Below, piece after piece: positions 1 through 14,386 of a stretch of DNA of 14,562 nt. The DNA lies in the IMG/VR virus record IMGVR_UViG_2695420651_000023, positions 1-14,562 of that record. The stretch is one strand, 5' to 3'. The notes beneath the pieces were generated by a model that saw nothing but the letters and a program-made list of their open reading frames with translations, did not search any database and was not told where the DNA came from. Position numbers and translations under genes: made by a program. Source of the stretch: a virus. Taxonomy: Duplodnaviria; Heunggongvirae; Uroviricota; Caudoviricetes. Within the stretch, counting starts at the first letter, position 1; every line of letters starts with the position of its first letter.

Positions 1-23
1 GGCAGAAGCAGAAAAAGCTTATT

Positions 24-701
24 ATGCTTCCATCAGAAACGATGATCTGGCAGCCTGAGTTCACAGATAAAACACTCTCCAGGAAAACCGGGGCGGTTCA
101 TTTTGCTGCTCTACTTCCGGGGTTTTTGGCACTCAATAATTCTGTATGGGCAAGTGATTTGCCTGGTATGACTCTTAATGAACATGATTTAGTGATAGCC
201 CCACTTAACACCGAAGTTCCATTCTACATTGCAGGGCATCGCAGTCATAGCTCCCATCGGAGCCATAGTTCTCACCGTTCATCATCAGGTGGCGGGTACT
301 ATGGTGGCAGCACTCCCTATTATCCAAAAACATACAGCTCACCAAGTTCATCTGGGTCTTCAAGTTCAGGAACAAGTCCCTCATCGTCCTCTTCCTCTGT
401 GCGTTCGCTTCGTTCTAACGACAATAACAACTCTACTACTACGAATTCTGTTGGAACTACAGAAGCTAACCGTGCAAGTAATGGGCTGACTTCTGGTACA
501 GAGAAGCGTAAGCGCTTAATCATGCGGGTTCAATTCGCTTTGCTGGACAAAGATTATTACAACGGGAATATTGACGGCATAATGGGGCCTTCCACAAGGC
601 AGTCAATAAAAAATTATCGCATTGCGAACGGACTACCAGTGCCCTCAAGTGAAACCTTGGATATACAGTTGTTAAATTCATTAAGTATTTTAGCTCGATA
701 A
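24..701 (+). CDS. secreted His-Xaa-Ser-repeat protein with Ser-rich linker and C-terminal peptidoglycan-binding (PG_binding_1-like) domain
   Basis: N-terminal hydrophobic stretch AVHFAALLPGFLALNNSVWA followed by SD (signal-peptide-like, AXA-type site). Repeat HRSHSSHRSHSSHRSSS. Long S/T/G/N-rich low-complexity linker. C-terminus DGIMGPSTRQSIKNYRIANGLPV resembles PG-binding domain. Reading frame is open upstream to the window edge, so the true start could be 24, 42, or outside the window. Confidence 0.6.
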   Translation: MLPSETMIWQPEFTDKTLSRKTGAVHFAALLPGFLALNNSVWASDLPGMTLNEHDLVIAPLNTEVPFYIAGHRSHSSHRSHSSHRSSSGGGYYGGSTPYYPKTYSSPSSSGSSSSGTSPSSSSSSVRSLRSNDNNNSTTTNSVGTTEANRASNGLTSGTEKRKRLIMRVQFALLDKDYYNGNIDGIMGPSTRQSIKNYRIANGLPVPSSETLDIQLLNSLSILAR

Positions 702-769
702 ATTAAGTATATTAAAAATTTTTCACTTTAACATTAACTTGTATGAATATATATTTCAGAGGCGATTAA

Positions 770-2581
770 ATGTCAGTCAGCTATAACATATATAGAATGC
801 CATATAAGAGTCTTCCAGAATTGACAAAAAAAATCATTAAAGAAGGGCTTGTCGAACAAAAAACTATTCTACATCAATCTTATCAACTCAAATTTTATTT
901 TTCTGATAAATTAAAAGGAAATGAAGTATGGTGGTGGGATGTTTTTAGTGATTTCTTCAATGAAGAAATTGAAAAGCCTCATAATATATTCTATTTTGGC
1001 CTGCTAATAGGATTTAAAGAAAAGGACCCTGAGAATTGCTATCTTATCAGTCTTGGTAAATCACATTTTTATCTCAGCAAGTTTATTGAAGCAGACTTTG
1101 GGCTGAATGTGGCAATGCGTATAGCTAATGATGAAAATATTTTACTCAAGAAAAGCAGATTCTTTTGTGGGGGAAAGAGTCAGGAGGCATCCTCATACTC
1201 ACAGTTTGTTCAAGGAGCATATTTTCCTGGCGAATCCATCGAGCATCTCAAAACAAAAGCCAAAGAAACTGACAAGTGGGGATGTAATAATATAACTTTT
1301 TCTGATTCAATTCAGCTAAGTTTGGATGGTGCTCCTACTGCATTAGTCGATGTTTTCAATGATATTGATTCTTCGTTGGCAACCAAAGAGAAAATCGAAT
1401 TTCCTAAATCGGAAAAAATCACTGACGAGTCAAAGATAGATGAGCTTGATAATTGTCTACTTCAATCGATCATTACAGATGATGCAAAAGTTATTATTGA
1501 TGAGATTCAATCTTTTGGTGCCTCTATTGTAATTAATAATTCTTTGACATTTTTTAAATTGCACACAAAAGTTGAGGGGAGTGGAAAGTATCTTCAATCA
1601 TCAGATAAAATTAATGACATAAAAATAGCAGATGTAAAGAAATTCATAAAAAATAACAACATAAAAGATGTCAATAAAGTTTTTGTTAAGATAACTAATG
1701 AAAATAACAGTGGTCATACAGCCTCGTTAAAAGAAATATTGAGCATTACTTATAGCGAGGGCAGCGAGCACTTCTTCCTTAAGAGGGGAGGATGGAGTCG
1801 ATTTAACTCTGCTTTTATGAAGTATTTGTCTACTTCTTTAGCCAGTATAAAATTTGAGGTTAAAGATGCTCTTAAGGAAGACGACTTCAAAGTATGGCAA
1901 GCTGAAAAAATAAAACAAATCGCAGAAGGAACTTCTAAAGACAAATTAGAATATAGAGAATATTATTTTAATGAAAAGATGTCTGATGAGAAAGGTTATA
2001 TACTTCTAGATCGCCAGCTAAAAAAAATACCATCCTTACGTGATAATGGCAAGGACTACAATGTTGAAGTTGCAGATCTTTATAAAAATGGAGAGATTAT
2101 TGCTGTAAAGATATCAGATAAACCGCATGATCTAATTTATAATATTGAACAGTCAAAAACCACAATTCAAACTATAGTAAGAGGAGTAGTAAAATTTGAA
2201 GAGACAATTACTGATGTGGTTTTATGGATCTCAACTACTACAAAAGCTAAAAAATTAATTGACATCAATTCTATTCAATTTTTATTAGCGGTTCAAACTT
2301 GGAAGGAAGTTGTTGAAGGATTTAATCTGAAACCAAAGATATATTATTCACATCACGATAAACCCCAAAAGAAAAAGGGAAAGAAAAAAACGCATCTTAA
2401 ATCTGAACTTAGAATTGGTTATGGAGAAAGATATCAGGTTATAGCGTCTCAGTATCGCTCCAATATTTGTGTGGATTATGTATCACCGATACTACCAAAA
2501 TTATTATGTTTTAGGTATGGTGATTTACCGCCATACCTCTTTTGTATTTATCTCGCAATGATGTTGTTTACTTTTGTTTAA
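770..2581 (+). CDS. hypothetical protein, 603 aa, AT-rich orphan; candidate defence/abortive-infection protein
   Basis: Long uninterrupted ORF with SD GAGG 7 nt before the ATG. K/N/I-rich composition and very low GC. No TM segments and no catalytic motif (Walker A, HNH, RT YxDD) recognisable by eye. Confidence 0.7.
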   Translation: MSVSYNIYRMPYKSLPELTKKIIKEGLVEQKTILHQSYQLKFYFSDKLKGNEVWWWDVFSDFFNEEIEKPHNIFYFGLLIGFKEKDPENCYLISLGKSHFYLSKFIEADFGLNVAMRIANDENILLKKSRFFCGGKSQEASSYSQFVQGAYFPGESIEHLKTKAKETDKWGCNNITFSDSIQLSLDGAPTALVDVFNDIDSSLATKEKIEFPKSEKITDESKIDELDNCLLQSIITDDAKVIIDEIQSFGASIVINNSLTFFKLHTKVEGSGKYLQSSDKINDIKIADVKKFIKNNNIKDVNKVFVKITNENNSGHTASLKEILSITYSEGSEHFFLKRGGWSRFNSAFMKYLSTSLASIKFEVKDALKEDDFKVWQAEKIKQIAEGTSKDKLEYREYYFNEKMSDEKGYILLDRQLKKIPSLRDNGKDYNVEVADLYKNGEIIAVKISDKPHDLIYNIEQSKTTIQTIVRGVVKFEETITDVVLWISTTTKAKKLIDINSIQFLLAVQTWKEVVEGFNLKPKIYYSHHDKPQKKKGKKKTHLKSELRIGYGERYQVIASQYRSNICVDYVSPILPKLLCFRYGDLPPYLFCIYLAMMLFTFV

Positions 2582-2984
2582 GTCTTCTAAGCTTCATACT
2601 TTCTAATGAGAATAATAATAGAGTTGTGCTGTATATAAAACCAGAGTTAGTTAATAACTTTAAATTTAATGCTTCAGGATTTTCACTGAGAAAATGAAAG
2701 GCATAAACTAAGTATACAGCTAAAGCAGCCGTTCCAATTGTTGGTCCAATATCGCCTTGATCATGAGGTTCAAGGTTTACATTGAATTTAAAGATTAGCC
2801 ATTCAAATCCCCAAGTAAAAAAAACAACTAATATCATGGCTGCGAATAATTTCGCGATGTTATCTGCTGATGGATTCATCAGAACAGATTGTTTCTGAAA
2901 AAATTCACAAAGTGAGAGTCCGAAAAAAATAAAAAAAAGTGGTCTGGAACTAAATTTTTCAAAAACTTTGAATAGGGTTTCCAT
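2568..2984 (-). CDS. small integral membrane protein, 138 aa, about 4 predicted TM helices
   Basis: Four hydrophobic stretches (LFFIFFGLSLCEFF, AAMILVVFFTWGFEWLIF, IGTAALAVYLVYAFHFL, IYSTTLLLFSL). Starts 38 bp downstream of the int stop on the same strand. Its 3' end overlaps the convergent 603-aa gene by 14 bp. Confidence 0.55.
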   Translation of the reverse strand: METLFKVFEKFSSRPLFFIFFGLSLCEFFQKQSVLMNPSADNIAKLFAAMILVVFFTWGFEWLIFKFNVNLEPHDQGDIGPTIGTAALAVYLVYAFHFLSENPEALNLKLLTNSGFIYSTTLLLFSLESMKLRRLKQK

Positions 2985-3022
2985 TTTCTTTACCTTCAGG
3001 ATTATATTAGCTATTCTGATAC

Positions 3023-4252
3023 TTAGGCTACCAGAGCATTTGATCTTTGAGCTTGAACGTAATCACTCCACCATTGCATCAAACTCTGTCGCTCTATCAG
3101 ATATTCTGCACGATTGTATGCTGCGATAATTTCATCTTTTTTCGAGTGGGCAAGCGCTGCCTCAAGAACTTCAGCTCTGAATTTACCAGACTCCTCTGCC
3201 GCTGTTCGCGCAATAGAACGCATACCGTGAGCTACAAGCTCGCCTCCGAACCCCATTCGGATGATAGCTGCGTTGGCTGTTTGTTCATGCATATGATTAA
3301 GAGGCGCTTTAATGCTGGGGAAAACCCATTCTCTATGCCCACTTATTGATTTCATTAATTCAAGGATGCGCAAAGCTTCTTTACTCAAAGGAACTTTGTG
3401 AGGCTTTTTCATTTTCATGAAATCAGCAGGAATGTTCCAAATGCTGTTGGTTGTATCAATATCAGACCATCTTGCGCGAACGGCTTCACCCGGACGAACC
3501 CATGTCAACAATTGCCATTCAATTAGCATACGTGTTTCCAACCGGATTGACGCATTCGTCAAAGATTCCATAAACCTTGGCAATTCGCTTGGGGGAAGGG
3601 CAGGCATATTTTGCTTTTTTGGTTTACTGAATCTTTGACCAAGGTTGTCAGCCGGGTTGAACTCAATAAGTTCTTCAGTAGCTGCCCACCTGAAGATTTC
3701 ATTCAGACGTGAAATGATACGGCGTAGAGTTTCCAATACGCCTCGTTGCTTAATAGGATCAAGGTGTTGTTTTAAGAGCTTAGGCCGGATCTCATTGATA
3801 GGGACATTACCCAGACCAGGAAAGACATTTCTCTCTAAGCTGCGCCAGATGTCTGCTGCATGGTCTTGTGAGATACCTGATGTCTTTACCTTCTCATCTA
3901 ACCATTTCCGCGCTACGGCTTGGAGAGTGTGCTCAGTAGCACTCTTTAATGCCTTCGCCTTATCGTTGTTATGGATTTGTGGATCAACACCATTTGCCAG
4001 AAAGGAAAGATATTCATCACGTAAGGCTCTGGCTCTTGCCAGTGTAAGGTGAGGATAGGTCCCAAGGCTCATTTTGGTTCTTTTTTTACTCACTGGCACT
4101 GCATACCTGAAATACCAATTCTTCTTTCCTCCTTTCGAGAGGGGAGCGATTCGTAGTATCAAACCATCTCCGTCAAACAAGTTGATTTCTTTGTCGGCTG
4201 GCTTGGTGCTTTTGATTTCAGTGTCAGTGAGCTTCTTAGCGATTTTTGCCAT
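3023..4252 (-). CDS. int: tyrosine recombinase, P4-family integrase (N-terminal arm-binding domain)
   Basis: N-terminus MAKIAKKLTDTEIKSTKPADKEINLFDGDGLILRI...WYFRY is typical of P4/CP4-57 IntA-type integrases. Start moved from 4294 to the ATG at 4252, which has SD GAGGG 7 nt upstream. C-terminal catalytic region contains R...H..R and a Tyr-containing segment. Confidence 0.9.
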   Translation of the reverse strand: MAKIAKKLTDTEIKSTKPADKEINLFDGDGLILRIAPLSKGGKKNWYFRYAVPVSKKRTKMSLGTYPHLTLARARALRDEYLSFLANGVDPQIHNNDKAKALKSATEHTLQAVARKWLDEKVKTSGISQDHAADIWRSLERNVFPGLGNVPINEIRPKLLKQHLDPIKQRGVLETLRRIISRLNEIFRWAATEELIEFNPADNLGQRFSKPKKQNMPALPPSELPRFMESLTNASIRLETRMLIEWQLLTWVRPGEAVRARWSDIDTTNSIWNIPADFMKMKKPHKVPLSKEALRILELMKSISGHREWVFPSIKAPLNHMHEQTANAAIIRMGFGGELVAHGMRSIARTAAEESGKFRAEVLEAALAHSKKDEIIAAYNRAEYLIERQSLMQWWSDYVQAQRSNALVA

Positions 4253-4349
4253 TTTGGGACCCTCGGTTTTTGGACCCTTCTTAGTGGGTCTCATTCAGGG
4301 TGCCATAACTCGTAGTTCTCAGCAATTCTCACTGGACGACAATAGACGT

Positions 4350-4381
4350 AAAAAAGCCCGCAGAGCTTGTGCTGTGCGGGC
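4350..4381 (-). terminator. rho-independent terminator on the minus strand, between the ssrA fragment and int
   Basis: Plus strand reads AAAAAA + GCCCGCAGAGC + TTGT + GCTGTGCGGGC (11-bp stem, one mismatch). On the minus strand this is hairpin followed by TTTTTT. Confidence 0.5.
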
Positions 4382-4417
4382 TTAGTAGACTTCATTGTAC
4401 TTCAAACAACTAAAAAG

Positions 4418-4464
4418 TGGTGGAGCTGGCGGGAGTTGAACCCGCGTCCGAAATTCCTACATAC
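4418..4464 (-). repeat. ssrA: 3'-terminal ~47 nt of ssrA (tmRNA), att core repeat; not a complete tmRNA gene
   Basis: Reverse complement reads ATGTAGGAATTTCGGACGCGGGTTCAACTCCCGCCAGCTCCACCA, the acceptor/T-arm end of enterobacterial tmRNA as I recall it. Sequence further upstream (4465 onward) is unrelated to tmRNA. Confidence 0.8.
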
Positions 4465-5521: not shown

Positions 5522-6547
5522 TTAATTAGTAGAAAAAAGAGTGGCTAAAGGATTTTTTGTCACCGCATCTTCAAGATGCTCTGGTGCGAAATGAGCATAA
5601 ATCATGGTCATTTTTATATCGGTATGGCCTAAAATTTCTTTAAGCACAAGTATATTACCGCCATTCATCATAAAGTGGCTGGCGAATGTATGGCGTAGCA
5701 CGTGGGTGCATTGTCCTTCTGGCAGTTCGATACCGGCCCGCTTTACTGCCCGCTCAAAGGCTTTTCTGCATGGTGTGAATAATTTCCCTCTATTTTTGGG
5801 AAGTTCGTCATACAGATCCTGAGATATTGGCACGGTACGGTTTTTCTTGCCCTTCGTCTTGGTGTATGTGATGCGGTATTTTGACAACTGGTGTCCCTGC
5901 AGATTTTCTGCTTCACTCCAGCGTGCTCCGGTGGCCAGGCATATTTTTGCAATCATCAGCAGGCTGGGGCTTTGAGAATCTGCGCAGGCATCCAACAGGC
6001 GCTTGATTTCGTCCATGGAAAGAAAGGCCAGCTCACCTTCAGCAATTTTAAATGTAGGAAGTCCTGCCAGTGGGTTTGGTGCTGACCAGTGTCCCAGCTT
6101 TTTCAGTGTGCCAAAAACCGATGACAGGTTGCGTTGTTCAAGATTTACCGTGCGGGGCTTAACAGGCGACATAAGCGCGCCATCTTCATTTCGCACTTCA
6201 CCCTTTAGCCGTGCTTCCCGGTATTTCGTAAAATCACCGGCGGTCAGTTCTGAAGCGATGGGATCGCCCAGACCATTACAGATAATTTTAAGTTTCGCCA
6301 TCAGGCGTTTGGGGTCAGCAAGCGTCTGCCCGTAAAGTGAGTACCATTGTTCAATCACTTCTGACAAATGTCGCCGATCTTCCTTTTCCCCCAGCCACGG
6401 TTTTTTGTTCACTTCTTCCATTGTGAAACGTTCAAACGCAATGGCTTCGCCTTTTGTCGCAAATTGTTTACGTACGCGTTTGCCATCTCGCCCGTTTGGG
6501 TAGCATTCACACAACCACTTTCCGTTCGGCTGTTTTCTGATCGTCAT
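5522..6547 (-). CDS. int: tyrosine integrase, P2/186 family
   Basis: N-terminus MTIRKQPNGKWLCECYPNGRDGKRVRKQFATKGEAIAFE resembles P2 Int. C-terminal HVLRHTFAS...GH...IYAH catalytic box. Start lies 2 bp after the cI stop. Confidence 0.9.
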   Translation of the reverse strand: MTIRKQPNGKWLCECYPNGRDGKRVRKQFATKGEAIAFERFTMEEVNKKPWLGEKEDRRHLSEVIEQWYSLYGQTLADPKRLMAKLKIICNGLGDPIASELTAGDFTKYREARLKGEVRNEDGALMSPVKPRTVNLEQRNLSSVFGTLKKLGHWSAPNPLAGLPTFKIAEGELAFLSMDEIKRLLDACADSQSPSLLMIAKICLATGARWSEAENLQGHQLSKYRITYTKTKGKKNRTVPISQDLYDELPKNRGKLFTPCRKAFERAVKRAGIELPEGQCTHVLRHTFASHFMMNGGNILVLKEILGHTDIKMTMIYAHFAPEHLEDAVTKNPLATLFSTN

Positions 6548-6549
6548 TA

Positions 6550-7182
6550 TTAGATGCTCTTAATCACTTTTACCACACGCCCTACAACGGCTACGTCATC
6601 AACTGCACATTCAAAGGTTGTTTCTTCCTGATGAACAACAAGCTTATTTCCGGGAATTCGAGCTACTTTTACGATGCTTTTCACTCCATCAATATCAACA
6701 AGCCAAGAGCCATTACTGATCTGTTTTACAGATACATCAACAATAAAACTTTCTGTTGTCGTTTGTATGAATAGATAGTTTGACGAATCGCCCTCAACCA
6801 ACCTGCTATCTAATAAAATTTCGTCATATGATTGAAGTTCACCATTTCTTAATTCTGTGTATTTGATACTGGGAGCTACGATTTTAGAAAGTGGTCTAAT
6901 TGTGACGTCATTATCATTTTTGAGAATGTTTGAGTCACAGTTATCTGCATACATATCACCCTGTCCGGTTGCCAACCAAAGAAGCGAGATCCCGGTTTCT
7001 AGAGCACATTGAATTACCCACTCTGCTGGAAAGCTATCTCTTAAGTATCTGTTTGCCATGGTGCTTTTAGATACTTTTAAGTGTTCGCAGAGTTGTTGGC
7101 GTGAGCTGAAATTGTAGGCTTTTATCAGCCTGTTGATGGCATCACGCCCCCCACTATCGTTTCCACCCTTGATTAGACTCAT
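6550..7182 (-). CDS. cI: CI-type immunity repressor (186-like), N-terminal HTH
   Basis: Start moved from 7314 to the ATG at 7182 (MSLIKGGN...), which has a G-rich SD. HTH-like segment QQLCEHLKVSKSTMANRYL. Sits immediately upstream of int and divergent from the apl-like gene. Confidence 0.75.
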   Translation of the reverse strand: MSLIKGGNDSGGRDAINRLIKAYNFSSRQQLCEHLKVSKSTMANRYLRDSFPAEWVIQCALETGISLLWLATGQGDMYADNCDSNILKNDNDVTIRPLSKIVAPSIKYTELRNGELQSYDEILLDSRLVEGDSSNYLFIQTTTESFIVDVSVKQISNGSWLVDIDGVKSIVKVARIPGNKLVVHQEETTFECAVDDVAVVGRVVKVIKSI

Positions 7183-10236: not shown

Positions 10237-12647
10237 GCCATGCTGATATGAACAACTGCAGCGGCTTTAACGAGTTCGCCGCAGCATTCTCATGGAACAG
10301 CCCGAAAAAGGCCATTAACCCTTATCTGGACCCGGCGGAAGTTGCGCCGGTTTCTGCGCTTTCAAACCTGATCACTCTGTACGCTGCCGATAACGAGCAG
10401 GAACAACTGCGCCGCGAGGCACTGAGTGATCAGGTCTGGGAGCGTTATTTCTTTAATGAATCCCGTGATCCTGTCCAGCGCGAAATGGAACAGGATAAGC
10501 TCATTAGTCGGGCAAAGCTGGCGCATGAGCAGCAGCGTTTTAATCCGGATATGGTCATTCTGGCGGACGTCAACGCCCAGCCTTCCCATATCAGCAAGCC
10601 GCTGATGCAACGTATTGAATACTTCAGCAGCCAGGGCAGGCCAAAGGCTTATTCCCGCTATTTACGTGAGACGATTAAGCCATGTCTGGAACGGCTGGAG
10701 CATGTACGCGACAGTCAGCTATCCACTTCTTTTCGCTTTATGGCAAGCCATGAAGGGCTGGACGGCCTGCTGATTCTGCCTGAAATGAGTCAGGATCAGG
10801 TGAAACGCCTGTCCACCCTTGTTGCTGCGCATATGAGCATGTGCCTTGATGCAGCTTGTGGCGATTTGTATGCCACCGATGACGTTAAGCCAGAAGAAAT
10901 CCGCAAGACATGGGAAAGGGTGGCGGCGGAAACCCTGCGTCTGGATGTCATCCCACCTGCGTTTGAGCAACTCCGCCGGAAAAGAAACCGCCGTAAACCC
11001 GTGCCCTATGAACTCATTCCGGGTTCGCTGGCGCGTATGTTGTGCGCCGACTGGTGGTATCGGAAATTATGGAAGATGCGTTGCGAATGGCGGGAGGAGC
11101 AGTTGCGCGCTGTCTGCCTGGTTAGCAAAAAAGCATCTCCTTATGTCAGCTATGAAGCCGTGATGCATAAACGTGAGCAGCGCCGTAAGTCGCTGGAGTT
11201 TTTCCGTTCTCATGAACTGGTGAACGAAGACGGCGACACGCTGGACATGGAGGATGTGGTAAACGCCAGCAGCAGCAACCCTGCGCATCGCCGCAATGAG
11301 ATGATGGCCTGTGTTAAAGGTCTGGAGCTTATCGCGGAAATGCGCGGTGACTGCGCCGTTTTCTACACCATCACCTGTCCGTCACGTTTCCATTCCACGC
11401 TAAATAACGGCAGGCCCAACCCAACCTGGACAAATGCGACGGTAAGACAAAGTAGTGATTATCTGGTCGGCATGTTTGCTGCATTTCGTAAGGCGATGCA
11501 CAAAGCCGGATTGCGCTGGTATGGCGTGCGGGTGGCTGAGCCGCATCATGACGGTACAGTTCACTGGCACCTGTTGTGTTTTATGCGCAAAAAAGACCGC
11601 CGCGCCATCACTGCATTACTGCGTAAGTTTGCCATCCGTGAAGACCGCGATGAGCTGGGCAATAACACTGGGCCGCGCTTTAAGTCTGAGTTGATTAACC
11701 CGCGCAAAGGTACGCCAACAAGCTACATCGCGAAATACATCAGTAAGAACATTGACGGGCGTGGTCTGACTGGCGAGATCAGCAAGGAAACGGGGAAATC
11801 CCTGCGTGATAATGCTGAATACGTTAATGCCTGGGCGTCTCTGCATCGTGTTCAGCAATTCCGCTTCTTTGGCATTCCGGGGCGTCAGGCTTACCGTGAA
11901 CTGCGATTGCTGGCTGGTCAGGCGGCAAGGCAACAGGGGGACAAAAAAGCAGGTGCGCCGGTACTGGATAACCCGCGCCTTGATGCAATCCTGGCTGCTG
12001 CTGATGCTGGTTGTTTTGCCACCTACATCATGAAGCAGGGCGGCGTACTGGTTCCCCGCAAATATCACCTGATCAGAACCGCTTATGAAATCAACGAAGA
12101 GCCGACCGCCTATGGCGATCACGGCATTCGTATTTATGGCATCTGGTCACCCATTGCAGAGGGCAAGATCTGCACTCATGCGGTGAAGTGGAAAATGGTT
12201 CGTAAGGCCGTTGACGTTCAGGAGGCGGCAGCCGACCAGGGCGCTTGCGCCCCTTGGACTCGTGGCAATAACTGTCCCCTTGCTGAAAATTTGAACCAAC
12301 AAGGGAAAGACAAATCAGCTGATGGGGATACCAGAACGGAAATCACCCGCATGGATGACAAGGAATTGCACGATTACCTGCACAGTATGAGCAAAAAAGA
12401 GCGCCGGGAACTGGCAGCAAGGTTACGCCTGGTTAAACCGAAACGGCGTAAAGACTACAAACAGCGAATTACAGATCATCAGCGACAGCAGCTCGTCTAT
12501 GAACTGAAGTCCAGAGGATTTGATGGCAGCGAGAAAGAGGTCGATTTACTCCTTCGCGGCGGCAGTATTCCGTCAGGAGCAGGCCTGCGTATCTTCTATC
12601 GGAACCAGCGTCTGCAGGAGGATGATAAATGGCGGAACCTGTATTAA
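10233..12647 (+). CDS. replication initiation endonuclease, P2/186 gene A family (rolling-circle, HUH-type)
   Basis: HUH-like motif [13 protein letters not shown] and twin-tyrosine motif [10 protein letters not shown] (phiX174 gpA / P2 A type YxxKY). Start at 10233 overlaps the dam stop (ATGA). 804 aa. Confidence 0.85.
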
Positions 12648-12741
12648 TTACGCAGGTTAACAATTCGTGCTCTTAATAATACCAGGCATATCAGGCTGAT
12701 GAGCGTAAAAAAACGTTTTACATCAGTAAGATTATTATATG

Positions 12742-12757
12742 CTGTAAATATAAACAG
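12742..12757. promoter_or_regulatory. LexA (SOS) box upstream of the tum/dinI-like operon
   Basis: CTGTAAATATAAACAG matches the CTGT-N8-ACAG consensus. Lies 43 bp upstream of the ATG at 12800, with a TATACA -10-like hexamer just downstream. Confidence 0.6.
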
Positions 12758-12799
12758 TGGTTATGTATACAGTGTTGCTTTGGTGTCATAGGAGGAAAG

Positions 12800-12988
12800 A
12801 TGCAGGACTATTTTTTGGAGTCTTTGAAGCTCCAGCGCATTGATTTTTTTCTTAAGCTTGTAGCGGCTAGTGAGTGTAGTGATGAAGAGAAGGGGCTGGC
12901 CCTGCAGTGGGTTTCTGAACTGACAGATGAACTCATGGCAAAAATCAGAACCCACGAATACAACCGCTCAATGGATGTCATCAGCTGA
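12800..12988 (+). CDS. small SOS-operon protein, 62 aa; candidate Tum-like antirepressor (N-terminal part)
   Basis: AGGAGG SD 6 nt upstream. First gene after the LexA box. Position corresponds to 186 tum. Confidence 0.5.
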   Translation: MQDYFLESLKLQRIDFFLKLVAASECSDEEKGLALQWVSELTDELMAKIRTHEYNRSMDVIS

Positions 12989-12998
12989 GGTGACTTTT

Positions 12999-13232
12999 AT
13001 GCGCATTGAAATAATGATCGATAAAGAGCAGAAGATTAGCCAGTCTACCCTGGACGCTCTGGAGTCAGAGCTTTACCGCAACCTGCAACCCATCTATCCC
13101 AAGACAGCTATCCGCATCCGTAAAGGGTCGGCAAACGGCGTTGAGCTGAGTGGCTTAAAGCTTGATGAAGACAAAAAGCGGGTGATGGAAATTATGCAGC
13201 AGGTTTGGGAAGACGACAGCTGGCTGCACTAA
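12999..13232 (+). CDS. DinI-family protein, 77 aa
   Basis: MRIEIMIDK...LDALESEL...DEDKKRVMEIMQQVWEDDSW aligns by eye with E. coli DinI (MRIEVTIAK...IDALAGEL...KEDKQRISEILQETWESADDW). Start at the ATG at 12999 with SD GAGGTG. Confidence 0.8.
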   Translation: MRIEIMIDKEQKISQSTLDALESELYRNLQPIYPKTAIRIRKGSANGVELSGLKLDEDKKRVMEIMQQVWEDDSWLH

Positions 13233-13305
13233 GGAACGTTCCTGATGTAAGAACTTGATTCTGACGTCAGCAAGGTTGAACAACGAGAGTAGCGAGGCGT
13301 TAGCC

Positions 13306-13566
13306 ATGGGTAAAAAAGACAGTAATCACCAGATTATTTATCGGGGCCAGGTGCTGGAACGGTTTACCCCTGGCGGCTGGGTCTTCTTTCAACGCCCAAA
13401 GGAGTGTGGCGGAGGTTTTTGGTTGGGCCGCACCTATGAAGACTGCTTCTGGCTTGAGCTGGAATTCCCCGTTTCGCTATATGACGGCCTGGAGTTTTTG
13501 ATGGAAGTCACCAGGGTAGAGCAGAGAAGTGATGAGGTTGACGCGAATTATTCCCTGTTTGATTAA
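13306..13566 (+). CDS. hypothetical protein, 86 aa
   Basis: ATG at 13306 with GAGG SD; the track's upstream extension uses a TTG start. No recognisable motifs. Confidence 0.5.
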   Translation: MGKKDSNHQIIYRGQVLERFTPGGWVFFQRPKECGGGFWLGRTYEDCFWLELEFPVSLYDGLEFLMEVTRVEQRSDEVDANYSLFD

Positions 13567-13585
13567 AAATGTATTAGCTTATAAT
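13559..13585 (+). promoter_or_regulatory. sigma70-like promoter for the 203-aa gene
   Basis: -35 TTGATT (13559..13564), 15-bp spacer, perfect -10 TATAAT (13580..13585), about 30 bp upstream of the ATG at 13615. Confidence 0.45.
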
Positions 13586-13614
13586 GGAATACTATTTTTG
13601 CAGGTGGGGGCGCA

Positions 13615-14226
13615 ATGGATTTAGTCTTTAAAATTCTGGCTTCGTTGGGTGGGGTGTCTTTTGTTGCATCTGGCATATTTGTTTGGATCGGGAAAGTTTA
13701 TTTAGAAAGATATAAGTCGCGGCTAAACAAAGATATTGCTGAATTTCAATCACAACTGAGTGCAACTAATGAAAGAATAAAGGCTAAGTTAGACAATTCT
13801 GTTTATGTAACGAAAGCGTATTTTGATAAGGAGTTATCAGCATATAGTCTCATTTGGAATTCGATGTTTGAAACCAGAGAAAGCGTGCTTAAGCTGAGGC
13901 CTGCGCTGGATCATTTTGACCCCAACGAACCATTTGAAGAGAGAAAATTTAGAAGGTTGAAAGTTTTTTTCGATGCATTTAATACTTTTGTTACAAGTGT
14001 TGAGTCTAACAAACCGTTCATCTCACCAGAGGTTTATATAATCTTGGACCGTTTCCGGAAGGAATGCCTTTCAGAGTCAATATCGTTTCAGCATGGCGAT
14101 CCAGAATTTGACTGGCAAAATTATTGGAAAGAGGCAGAGTTGAACCGTACAACCATCACCAAGCTTTTTGATGAGACGTGTGATGCAATTCGAGACAGGA
14201 TGCACACATTAACTGTGGTTACGTAG
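13615..14226 (+). CDS. membrane-anchored hypothetical protein, 203 aa (single N-terminal TM helix); candidate defence moron
   Basis: N-terminal hydrophobic helix ILASLGGVSFVASGIFVWIG, then a charged/coiled-coil-like region. Own promoter and strong SD AGGTGGGGG. Lower GC than the phage core. Confidence 0.7.
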   Translation: MDLVFKILASLGGVSFVASGIFVWIGKVYLERYKSRLNKDIAEFQSQLSATNERIKAKLDNSVYVTKAYFDKELSAYSLIWNSMFETRESVLKLRPALDHFDPNEPFEERKFRRLKVFFDAFNTFVTSVESNKPFISPEVYIILDRFRKECLSESISFQHGDPEFDWQNYWKEAELNRTTITKLFDETCDAIRDRMHTLTVVT

Positions 14227-14317
14227 TTTTCCAAAAAGTCTCGATGCCCGCTTTGGCGATTGTGCATGTCTATGCCGCATGAATCCGCATGATCGTTTGA
14301 GGATCGTTTTAGCTGAG

Positions 14318-14341
14318 GCCCGCTAGGAATGGCGGGCTTTT
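14318..14341 (+). terminator. rho-independent terminator
   Basis: GCCCGC + 8-nt loop TAGGAATG + GCGGGC, followed by TTTT. Confidence 0.55.
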
Positions 14342-14386
14342 GCTTATGTCATGCAGGCGCATGAAAACCACTACATAAAGCGGGCA

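Follow-up and report, generated by a model that had tools for sequence, protein, structure and literature searches.

Two small open reading frames (ORFs) follow the replication endonuclease gene gpA in the 14,562-nt stretch of viral DNA analysed here (the window), and they raise the question of how the phage that carries them is induced by DNA damage. An earlier note on this DNA had proposed a LexA-controlled operon consisting of a 62-aa Tum-like ORF and a DinI-like ORF, and had left two possibilities for their relationship: a naturally split antirepressor/DinI pair or a single tum gene broken by a frameshift. We argue below that the pair is very probably the SOS-induction module of a Fels-2/Cartapus-like P2-family prophage. 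Every feature by which the LexA-controlled Tum/TumA antirepressor family can be recognized in sequence was found, in the split Fels-2/DuoHS form, and the functional features of the family, demonstrated only in close relatives, would apply here by analogy. Modules of this kind are already known, and the antirepressor role has been tested genetically on a 98%-identical protein.

Escherichia phage Cartapus belongs to the Peduoviridae, is Fels-2-like and resides in E. coli LF82. When the region from 12600 to 13400 was compared with it, the two were 99.8% identical. Over the whole window the identity to Cartapus was only 94% and patchy, and the CI repressors of the two were 54% identical and of different immunity types, which indicates that the source of the window is a relative of Cartapus and not LF82 itself. 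The window corresponds to a Cartapus/Fels-2-like early region with the order int-CI-cox-cII-fil-...-dam-gpA-tum-dinI, in which genes for a Cox/Apl-like excisionase, CII, Fil, DUF5347 and DUF2732 proteins, a DksA-like zinc finger protein and a Dam methylase lie between CI and gpA (coordinates of the main features are given in the table). It had been pointed out that tum of coliphage 186 occupies the matching position after gene A, and the 186 record agrees, with a LexA-controlled promoter and a DinI-like C-terminal half of the protein. The position of the two ORFs after gene A of a P2-family phage is thus that of Tum/TumA genes, and the CI of the window is of the 186 type. This CI, 210 aa when counted from the MSLIKGG start by analogy with its relatives, gave no hit to Peptidase_S24 in Pfam. 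Since a 186-type CI gave no such hit, an antirepressor would be the expected route by which CI is coupled to the SOS response.

Table. Features of the SOS-induction module and of the genes related to it in the window
Feature	Position	Strand	Basis or remark
Integrase	5522-6547	-	Early-region gene
CI immunity repressor, 186-type, putative target of TumA	6550..7182	-	Pfam Phage_CI_repr and Phage_CI_C
Replication endonuclease gpA	ends at 12647		Directly before the two ORFs
-35 hexamer TTTACA of the tum (p95-like) promoter	12717..12722	+	Conserved geometry; match to 186 p95
Presumptive -10 hexamer TGCTGT	12740..12745	+	Overlaps left arm of box 1; analogy with 186 p95
LexA (SOS) box 1, CTGTAAATATAAACAG	12742..12757	+	Perfect CTGT-N8-ACAG
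LexA (SOS) box 2, GTGGTTATGTATACAG = GTGG-TTATGTAT-ACAG	12757..12772	+	Degenerate left arm
Ribosome-binding site AGGAGG of tumA	12790..12795	+	Read from sequence
tumA, 62-aa antirepressor, Fels-2/DuoHS-type Tum	12800..12988	+	Orthologue identity and profile homology
Ribosome-binding site GAGGTGA of the dinI-like gene	12987..12993	+	Overlaps tumA stop codon; read from sequence
dinI-like gene, 77 aa, tumB equivalent	12999..13232	+	Pfam DinI; phrog_189

The earlier note had described one near-consensus SOS box at the promoter of the 62-aa ORF. This box (box 1) is the sole perfect CTGT-N8-ACAG in the window. Taken alone, a single perfect box is weak evidence, because 0.12 such boxes are expected by chance and 22 of 200 shuffled sequences contained at least one. 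We compared the window with loci that each encode a relative of the 62-aa protein, 40 in all and each from a different species of Enterobacterales, spanning Escherichia, Citrobacter and Serratia to Pantoea, Erwinia, Tatumella and Izhakiella. A box was present at the corresponding place in all 40 loci with enough upstream sequence; 30 of these boxes, that of the window included, were perfect and 10 had a mismatch in one arm. The box itself was therefore well placed in the earlier description, and only its number has to be revised, as a second box abuts the first.

The two 16-bp boxes share G12757 and thus overlap by 1 bp, which is the arrangement of the colicin-type double operator. In the loci whose box lies 36-79 nt from the ATG (the long class), the ACAG arm of box 2 was found in exact register in 24 of 29, and the AT-rich N8 varied. 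A single box was found in the 11 loci of the short class (Pantoea/Erwinia type), and also in 186 and PSP3. When the 43-nt operator region was searched against plasmids with blastn, it matched many small Col plasmids at 85-89% identity. These matches lay directly upstream of colicin Y and cloacin genes and aligned base for base across both boxes, sharing with the window a 35-nt pattern, TGCTGT-N8-A/CCAG-TGG-N8-ACAGT, that includes the degenerate GTGG arm and the 1-bp overlap. The promoters differ in that the colicin TTGACA lies further upstream and the boxes come after the -10, whereas box 1 of the window overlaps the -10; further, the downstream genes are unrelated. Colicin operators are bound by two LexA dimers, which results in tight repression (PMC2994835). 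Binding of two dimers in the window is putative, and by analogy the threshold at which Fels-2-type phages are induced is probably higher, or reached later, than in 186. The double operator had not been seen in the earlier note, nor had the variant at 12741 and the lack of co-variation between TumA and CI that are described below. Another LexA-like site, at 2629-2644, was attributed to chance: four sites with one mismatch were found in comparison with 4.7 expected, and this one lies inside an ORF without a second box.

The -35 hexamer lies exactly 17 nt before T[A/G]CTGT, and in the 40 species loci the -35 was at least 90% conserved at this fixed distance, with a spacer whose sequence varied. 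The relative placing of LexA box, -35 and -10 was retained in 40 of 40 loci. The -35 was TTTACA in 26 of the 40 loci and TTCACA in five, and TACTGT was found in 36, its last four bases forming the left arm of the LexA box. The annotated p95 promoter of 186 is TTCACA-N18-TACTGT with a LexA site starting at the -10, and the geometry of the window matches it. Thus, as in other members of the Tum/TumA family, a LexA box overlaps the presumptive promoter directly upstream of tumA; the -10 is assigned by analogy with 186. A simple consensus promoter scan called no promoter at this site, because TACTGT is a poor -10. Poor -10 hexamers are usual for tightly controlled SOS promoters.

At position 12741 the window carries a private A to G change, so that it reads TGCTGT where Cartapus, HS, Fels-2, 186 and PSP3 read TACTGT. 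Among about 1,004 matching E. coli genomes, no copy of the exact 60-mer of the window was found; the best full-length hits each had one mismatch. If TACTGT is the -10, as annotated in 186, the change removes the critical -11 A, and the module could be attenuated or silent in this source, with all of its parts intact in a prophage that is poorly SOS-inducible. We regard this as possible but rather doubtful. The conservation of TACTGT in the species loci and the named phages and the absence of the 60-mer from the E. coli genomes speak for it, as does a precedent in Salmonella D23580, in which a single -10 SNP in the LexA-controlled PdinI-gfoA promoter of Gifsy-1 abolishes induction (PMC5322425). 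On the other hand, the position of the -10 in the Fels-2-type group is itself assigned by analogy, and if the hexamer instead began two bases upstream (TATACT, here TATGCT), the change would fall at a less critical position. TGCTGT also occurs in one other species locus (L007, Buttiauxella) and is used naturally by colicin operators, so that LexA binding is probably unaffected, and base 12741 could be a sequencing error. With G at the key second position of the hexamer and no call from the promoter scan, the tum promoter may be weak in this source. The variant was also considered as the cause of the non-induction of Cartapus by ciprofloxacin in LF82, and this was ruled out because Cartapus itself has TACTGT.

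We next consider the identity of the 62-aa protein, which had been called Tum-like with the proposal that it be aligned with 186 Tum. No pair among the 62-aa protein, 186 Tum and PSP3 TumA was matched by BLASTP; pairwise comparison is not sensitive enough when only about 45 residues are shared. With a profile of low diversity (Neff 1.5), hhalign reached a probability of just 14% (P 0.002), and this was resolved by adding divergent members. With the diverse profile, built from 44 divergent members that were collected by an exhaustive representative search, hhalign aligned TumA with the 186 Tum-N family at 96.9% probability (E 1.4e-10), ungapped, residues 4-44 with residues 4-44. Further, an HMM scored residues 6-43 of 186 Tum at 34.3 bits, and none of 1,000 shuffles exceeded 6.7 bits. 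In PHROGs, the N-terminal ~60 residues of 186 Tum and the TumA of the window both matched phrog_1993, phrog_8554 and phrog_698, and PSP3 TumA matched phrog_1993. PSP3 TumA is linked to the window protein via phrog_1993 only, its score of 3.4 bits with the HMM of the 62-aa ORF family being within the shuffle range. The shared core is E-x4-[QE]-R-[IV]-[DE]-x3-[RK]-L-x5-C-x3-[DE]-[KR]-x-[LI]-A-[LI]-x-[WL]-[IV]-[AS]-E-[LI]. These comparisons indicate that the 62-aa protein and the N-terminal half of 186 Tum are homologous, as is characteristic of Tum/TumA, and that the name Tum-like was apt.

A lack of conservation of the 62-aa ORF among related prophages had been named as grounds for abandoning the proposal. 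TumA was identical at 61 of 62 residues to ECHS_RS04495 of E. coli HS (tum of prophage DuoHS) and to STM2728 of Fels-2. Its amino acid identity was 100% in Klebsiella phages whose DNA is ~91% identical; for Fels-2 and RE2010 the value was 98%, and for SopEPhi and the Yersinia phages it was 84-89%. When the 40 loci were compared, tumA had a dN/dS of ~0.08, with 36, 24 and 58 variable columns at the first, second and third codon positions, respectively, and the gene is under purifying selection. The ORF antisense to tumA was broken in 18 of 35 relatives, and the ribosome-binding site of tumA was conserved as AGGAGG(G)AA in nearly all loci. The likeness to DuoHS and to Fels-2 (STM2728 and the dinI gene STM2726.1) extends beyond the protein, to the gene order gpA-tum-dinI, the -35, the double SOS operator and the ribosome-binding sites. 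The window differs from them in having TGCTGT instead of TACTGT at the -10 and left arm, and in the cargo genes after dinI; it differs from HS also in the immunity type of its CI.

In the AlphaFold prediction (pLDDT 90), TumA is a hairpin of two helices, residues 2-23 and 28-61, and the turn between them contains the conserved Cys. Foldseek comparison of this model with the PDB returned generic helical hairpins only, none at E <= 0.001, and a sequence relative of TumA was likewise not found in the PDB. The exhaustive profile search delineated a small family of 86 clusters at 50% identity, almost all of them stand-alone proteins of 50-100 aa.

The second ORF had been called a clear DinI homologue beginning 10 bp after the first. 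Its ATG lies 10 nt past the tumA stop codon in a different frame, and the product matched Pfam DinI (PF06183) at E 2e-24, with 86.1 bits against a cut-off of 24.2. The alignment with E. coli DinI (1GHH) gave E 2e-9 over residues 1-75 and included the C-terminal W-E-D...W motif. A profile score above the cut-off together with similarity over the full length places the product in the DinI family, in agreement with the earlier description. The same ORF was 43% identical to residues 71-145 of 186 Tum (E 2e-25).

In 186, the counterparts of the two ORFs are the halves of a single 146-aa Tum protein, and the ORFs of the window, only 10 nt apart, are in different frames. Both facts would fit a once-fused 186-like tum that has been frameshifted or pseudogenized by a sequencing error or a recent mutation, an explanation to which we give almost no credence. 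The split, always annotated as two genes, is present in 1,126 of 5,426 complete E. coli genomes and also in phages of Klebsiella, Salmonella and Yersinia, and in other species dinI lies 8-13 nt downstream in all three relative frames (0, 1 and 2). Each ORF has its own Shine-Dalgarno sequence, tumA is constrained by selection as described above, and ~25 residues of the linker of 186 Tum (45-70) have no counterpart in the window. Further, stand-alone proteins of 63-78 aa, some of them named "Tum protein" by NCBI, are common in the 186-type Tum-N family, and in 186 itself the DinI-like part is also made on its own, from an internal GTG start (186 record). A frameshifted pseudogene would be sporadic, under relaxed selection and of constant frame offset, and none of these was observed. 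Of the two relationships offered in the earlier note, the naturally split pair is thus the one that the genome comparisons favour, and the frameshifted tum can be set aside.

The split had already been described for Fels-2 and PSP3. According to PMC3121763, a stop codon divides tum of both phages into a gene for the antirepressor and a dinI gene, and in PSP3 the antirepressor is encoded by the upstream gene and the DinI homologue by the downstream one; the statement on split tum in that paper rests on Bunny 2002 together with a personal communication. In the PSP3 GenBank record the two genes are named tumA and tumB. From the split in E. coli genomes and the stand-alone Tum-N proteins, we infer that the fused Tum of 186 is the less common form. 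The pair is not obligatory, tumA being found without an adjacent dinI in 18 of the 40 species loci. A weak hairpin over the tumA stop codon and the dinI ribosome-binding site was flagged as terminator-like in a scan, and it was not statistically distinctive (z -1.2). No terminator stood out after dinI in the scan or the structure check, and the operon may therefore be longer than two genes.

The requirement for the antirepressor has been examined in E. coli HS. In the Phollow study, an in-frame deletion of tum in the P2-like prophage DuoHS abolished the lysis and viral foci induced by mitomycin C, and lexA(Ind-) had the same effect (PMC12055606). The supplementary primers of that study specify the gene: NHR24 and NHR28 fuse the ATG to the TGA of the orthologous 62-aa gene, NHR24 matching the window at 12780-12802 with one mismatch and NHR28 at 12986-13008 with none. 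This gene, ECHS_RS04495, is 189 nt long, annotated "hypothetical protein" and located between gpA and the DinI-like gene. Further, a lexA null mutation is lethal in Salmonella LT2, and this effect has been attributed to Fels-2 (PMC8072944, citing Bunny 2002). By analogy with the 98%-identical HS orthologue, tumA of the window would be required for SOS induction. Together with the absence of an S24 hit in CI, these results support the earlier proposal that induction proceeds through a LexA-dependent antirepressor and not through autocleavage of CI.

The HS phenotype could also be read in another way, namely that the DinI-like protein, alone or together with TumA, triggers induction and that deletion of tum abolished translationally coupled expression of dinI. 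The overlap of the tumA stop codon with the dinI Shine-Dalgarno sequence and the weak hairpin across it are compatible with such coupling, the text of PMC12055606 does not report complementation of the tum deletion, which leaves a small chance of a polar effect on dinI, and dinI and the antirepressor are co-transcribed in Gifsy phages (PMC3121763). We nevertheless consider this reading improbable. The HS deletion retains an ATG-TGA and the intact ribosome-binding site of dinI, the hairpin is not distinctive, and LexA-boxed tumA genes occur in those species loci that have no adjacent dinI. In the 186 record, only full-length Tum, with the N-terminal residues, is annotated as inhibiting CI binding, whereas the truncated DinI-like products are annotated only to 'modulate SOS induction'; in PSP3, it is the upstream gene that is reported to carry the antirepressor activity (PMC3121763).

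With TumA as the antirepressor, the module would work as follows. In the uninduced state, LexA bound to boxes 1 and 2 would cover the tum promoter at its -10 region and its start, and so keep it shut. Upon DNA damage, RecA would become active, LexA would cleave itself and the tum promoter would fire, giving one transcript that encodes TumA and the DinI-like protein as two separate proteins. TumA would inactivate the 186-type CI, in which no autocleavage domain was found, and lytic growth would follow. The DinI-like protein would probably modulate RecA filaments and thereby influence how the SOS signal develops, a role that its family membership suggests. Sequence conservation, the lexA(Ind-) result in HS and the lethal effect of the lexA null mutation in LT2 are the grounds for the LexA steps, and the inactivation of CI rests on the HS deletion, the homology to 186 Tum and the work on 186 and PSP3 cited in PMC3121763. 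Direct binding of TumA to CI, occupancy of both boxes by LexA, co-transcription of the two genes and the role of the DinI-like protein are predictions of this scheme.

In 186, Tum binds CI and keeps it off the operator, a mechanism known for 186 alone (Shearwin 1998, cited in PMC3121763). That TumA would likewise inactivate the CI of the window is a transfer from these relatives, because this CI is just 39% identical to HS CI and 33% identical to 186 CI. We observed that TumA does not co-vary with CI: TumA proteins that are 98-100% identical are paired with CIs that are only 36-54% identical to that of the window. When 24 CIs were compared with the window CI, residues 41-75, in the N-terminal DNA-binding domain, averaged 75% identity, compared with 22% in the linker and 40% in the C-terminal domain. 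The lack of co-variation suggests either a conserved docking surface together with broad specificity of TumA or free recombination between the modules. If TumA is of broad specificity, it may target the conserved N-terminal DNA-binding domain of CI. We offer, as a tentative conjecture that has less in its favour than against it, a joint reading of these observations, in which TumA of the Fels-2 group would be a broad-specificity antirepressor under colicin-style double-LexA control that cross-induces heteroimmune P2-like prophages or satellites, with the switch disarmed in this source by the -10 change.

The module can be placed among the known systems. The antirepressor mechanism is established for 186 (PMC3121763), and the window resembles 186 in the position after gene A, the LexA box that overlaps the -10 (TACTGT in 186) and a CI of the same Pfam type. 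The N-terminal ~45 residues of 186 Tum are homologous to TumA and its C-terminal 77 residues to the DinI-like ORF. Unlike in the window, the two parts are fused in 186 through the linker of ~25 residues, the single LexA box is close to the start codon, and orf97 follows downstream. PSP3 tumA/tumB shares with the window the split into an antirepressor gene and a dinI-like gene and an upstream LexA box, but PSP3 TumA belongs to the 186-like branch (phrog_1993, E 3e-32), there is just one LexA box, and the two genes lie 3 nt apart. The dinI-gfoA and dinI-gftA operons of Gifsy-1 and Gifsy-2 in Salmonella are likewise LexA-controlled and combine a DinI homologue with a small antirepressor that acts on a non-cleavable repressor (PMC3121763). 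In contrast to the window, dinI comes first in these operons, and their antirepressors and repressors are those of lambdoid prophages.

The module, found in about one in five complete E. coli genomes, decides whether a very common class of prophages of E. coli, Salmonella and Klebsiella responds to DNA-damaging antibiotics. Since its biology is already established, the present assignment is of practical value for annotation. In RefSeq, Pfam and PHROGs the antirepressor is listed as 'hypothetical' or as having an 'unknown function', and the inducibility of these prophages is therefore routinely missed in genome surveys. Further, the double operator, the missing co-variation of TumA with CI and the private promoter variant bear on the induction threshold and on cross-talk between co-resident prophages. 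If TumA is indeed of broad specificity, one SOS-derepressed tum could cross-induce other residents of its cell, namely heteroimmune P2-like prophages or satellites, and the double operator would delay this cross-induction until the damage is severe.

The putative antirepressor gene tumA (62 codons) is preceded by a double SOS box, the tum operator. Box 1 shares 1 bp with the second box, whose left arm is degenerate. The operator aligned base for base with those found on small Col plasmids upstream of the genes for colicin Y and cloacin, and by its sequence we classify it as a colicin-type double SOS box. In contrast, phage 186, PSP3 and the Pantoea/Erwinia relatives each possess a single box at tum.

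At window position 12741, in the presumptive -10 element and left flank of the LexA box, a private A->G change converts TACTGT to TGCTGT. The Fels-2-like phage Cartapus has A at the equivalent position, and the exact 60-mer of the window was absent from all of the approximately 1,004 matching complete E. coli genomes. The change may act as a promoter-down variant, or the base may have been misread in sequencing.

Downstream, a small hairpin (GTCATC/GGTGAC) covers the tumA stop codon and the Shine-Dalgarno sequence of the dinI-like gene. It was marked as terminator-like by the scan; its folding energy was not distinctive (z -1.2). In most relatives, homology stops shortly past the dinI stop codon, and query coverage ends near 13240 or 13304. 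In window 13233-14354, no terminator-like structure was found between dinI and the next two genes, and therefore these genes, which may be variable cargo, may be transcribed from the SOS promoter. At the other end, window 1-4418 was unlike Cartapus and encodes a second integrase together with DUF6119 and peptidoglycan-binding proteins, suggesting that another integrative element adjoins the prophage there.

Features of the window and their positions
Feature	Position	Strand	Remark
Protein with peptidoglycan-binding domain	24-701
DUF6119 protein	770-2581		603 aa
Second tyrosine integrase, P4-type	3023-4294	minus	Arm-DNA-bind_3 domain
tum operator	12740-12774
Hairpin	12977-12994
phrog_2100 gene	13306-13566		function unknown; after dinI
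phrog_26391 gene	13615-14226		function unknown; after dinI

Many members of the 186-like Tum-N family (among proteins P0121-P0240) are stand-alone proteins of 63-78 aa. Thus, the 146-aa fused Tum of 186 is not the sole form in its own branch. Separately, the TumA profile matched a 1,205-aa protein (P0281) in 10 separate stretches (E 5e-10); this is probably a repetitive helical protein.

We also compared TumA (encoded at 12800-12988, plus strand) with CI (encoded at 6550-7182, minus strand), the 186-type immunity repressor and its inferred target. The CI partners of near-identical TumA proteins (98-100%; loci L005, L001 and L006) were just 36-54% identical to the CI of the window, and CI conservation was high only in the N-terminal DNA-binding domain (residues 41-75). 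This mismatch between the compared sequences hints that TumA may be a broad-specificity antirepressor, or that the modules may be freely shuffled.
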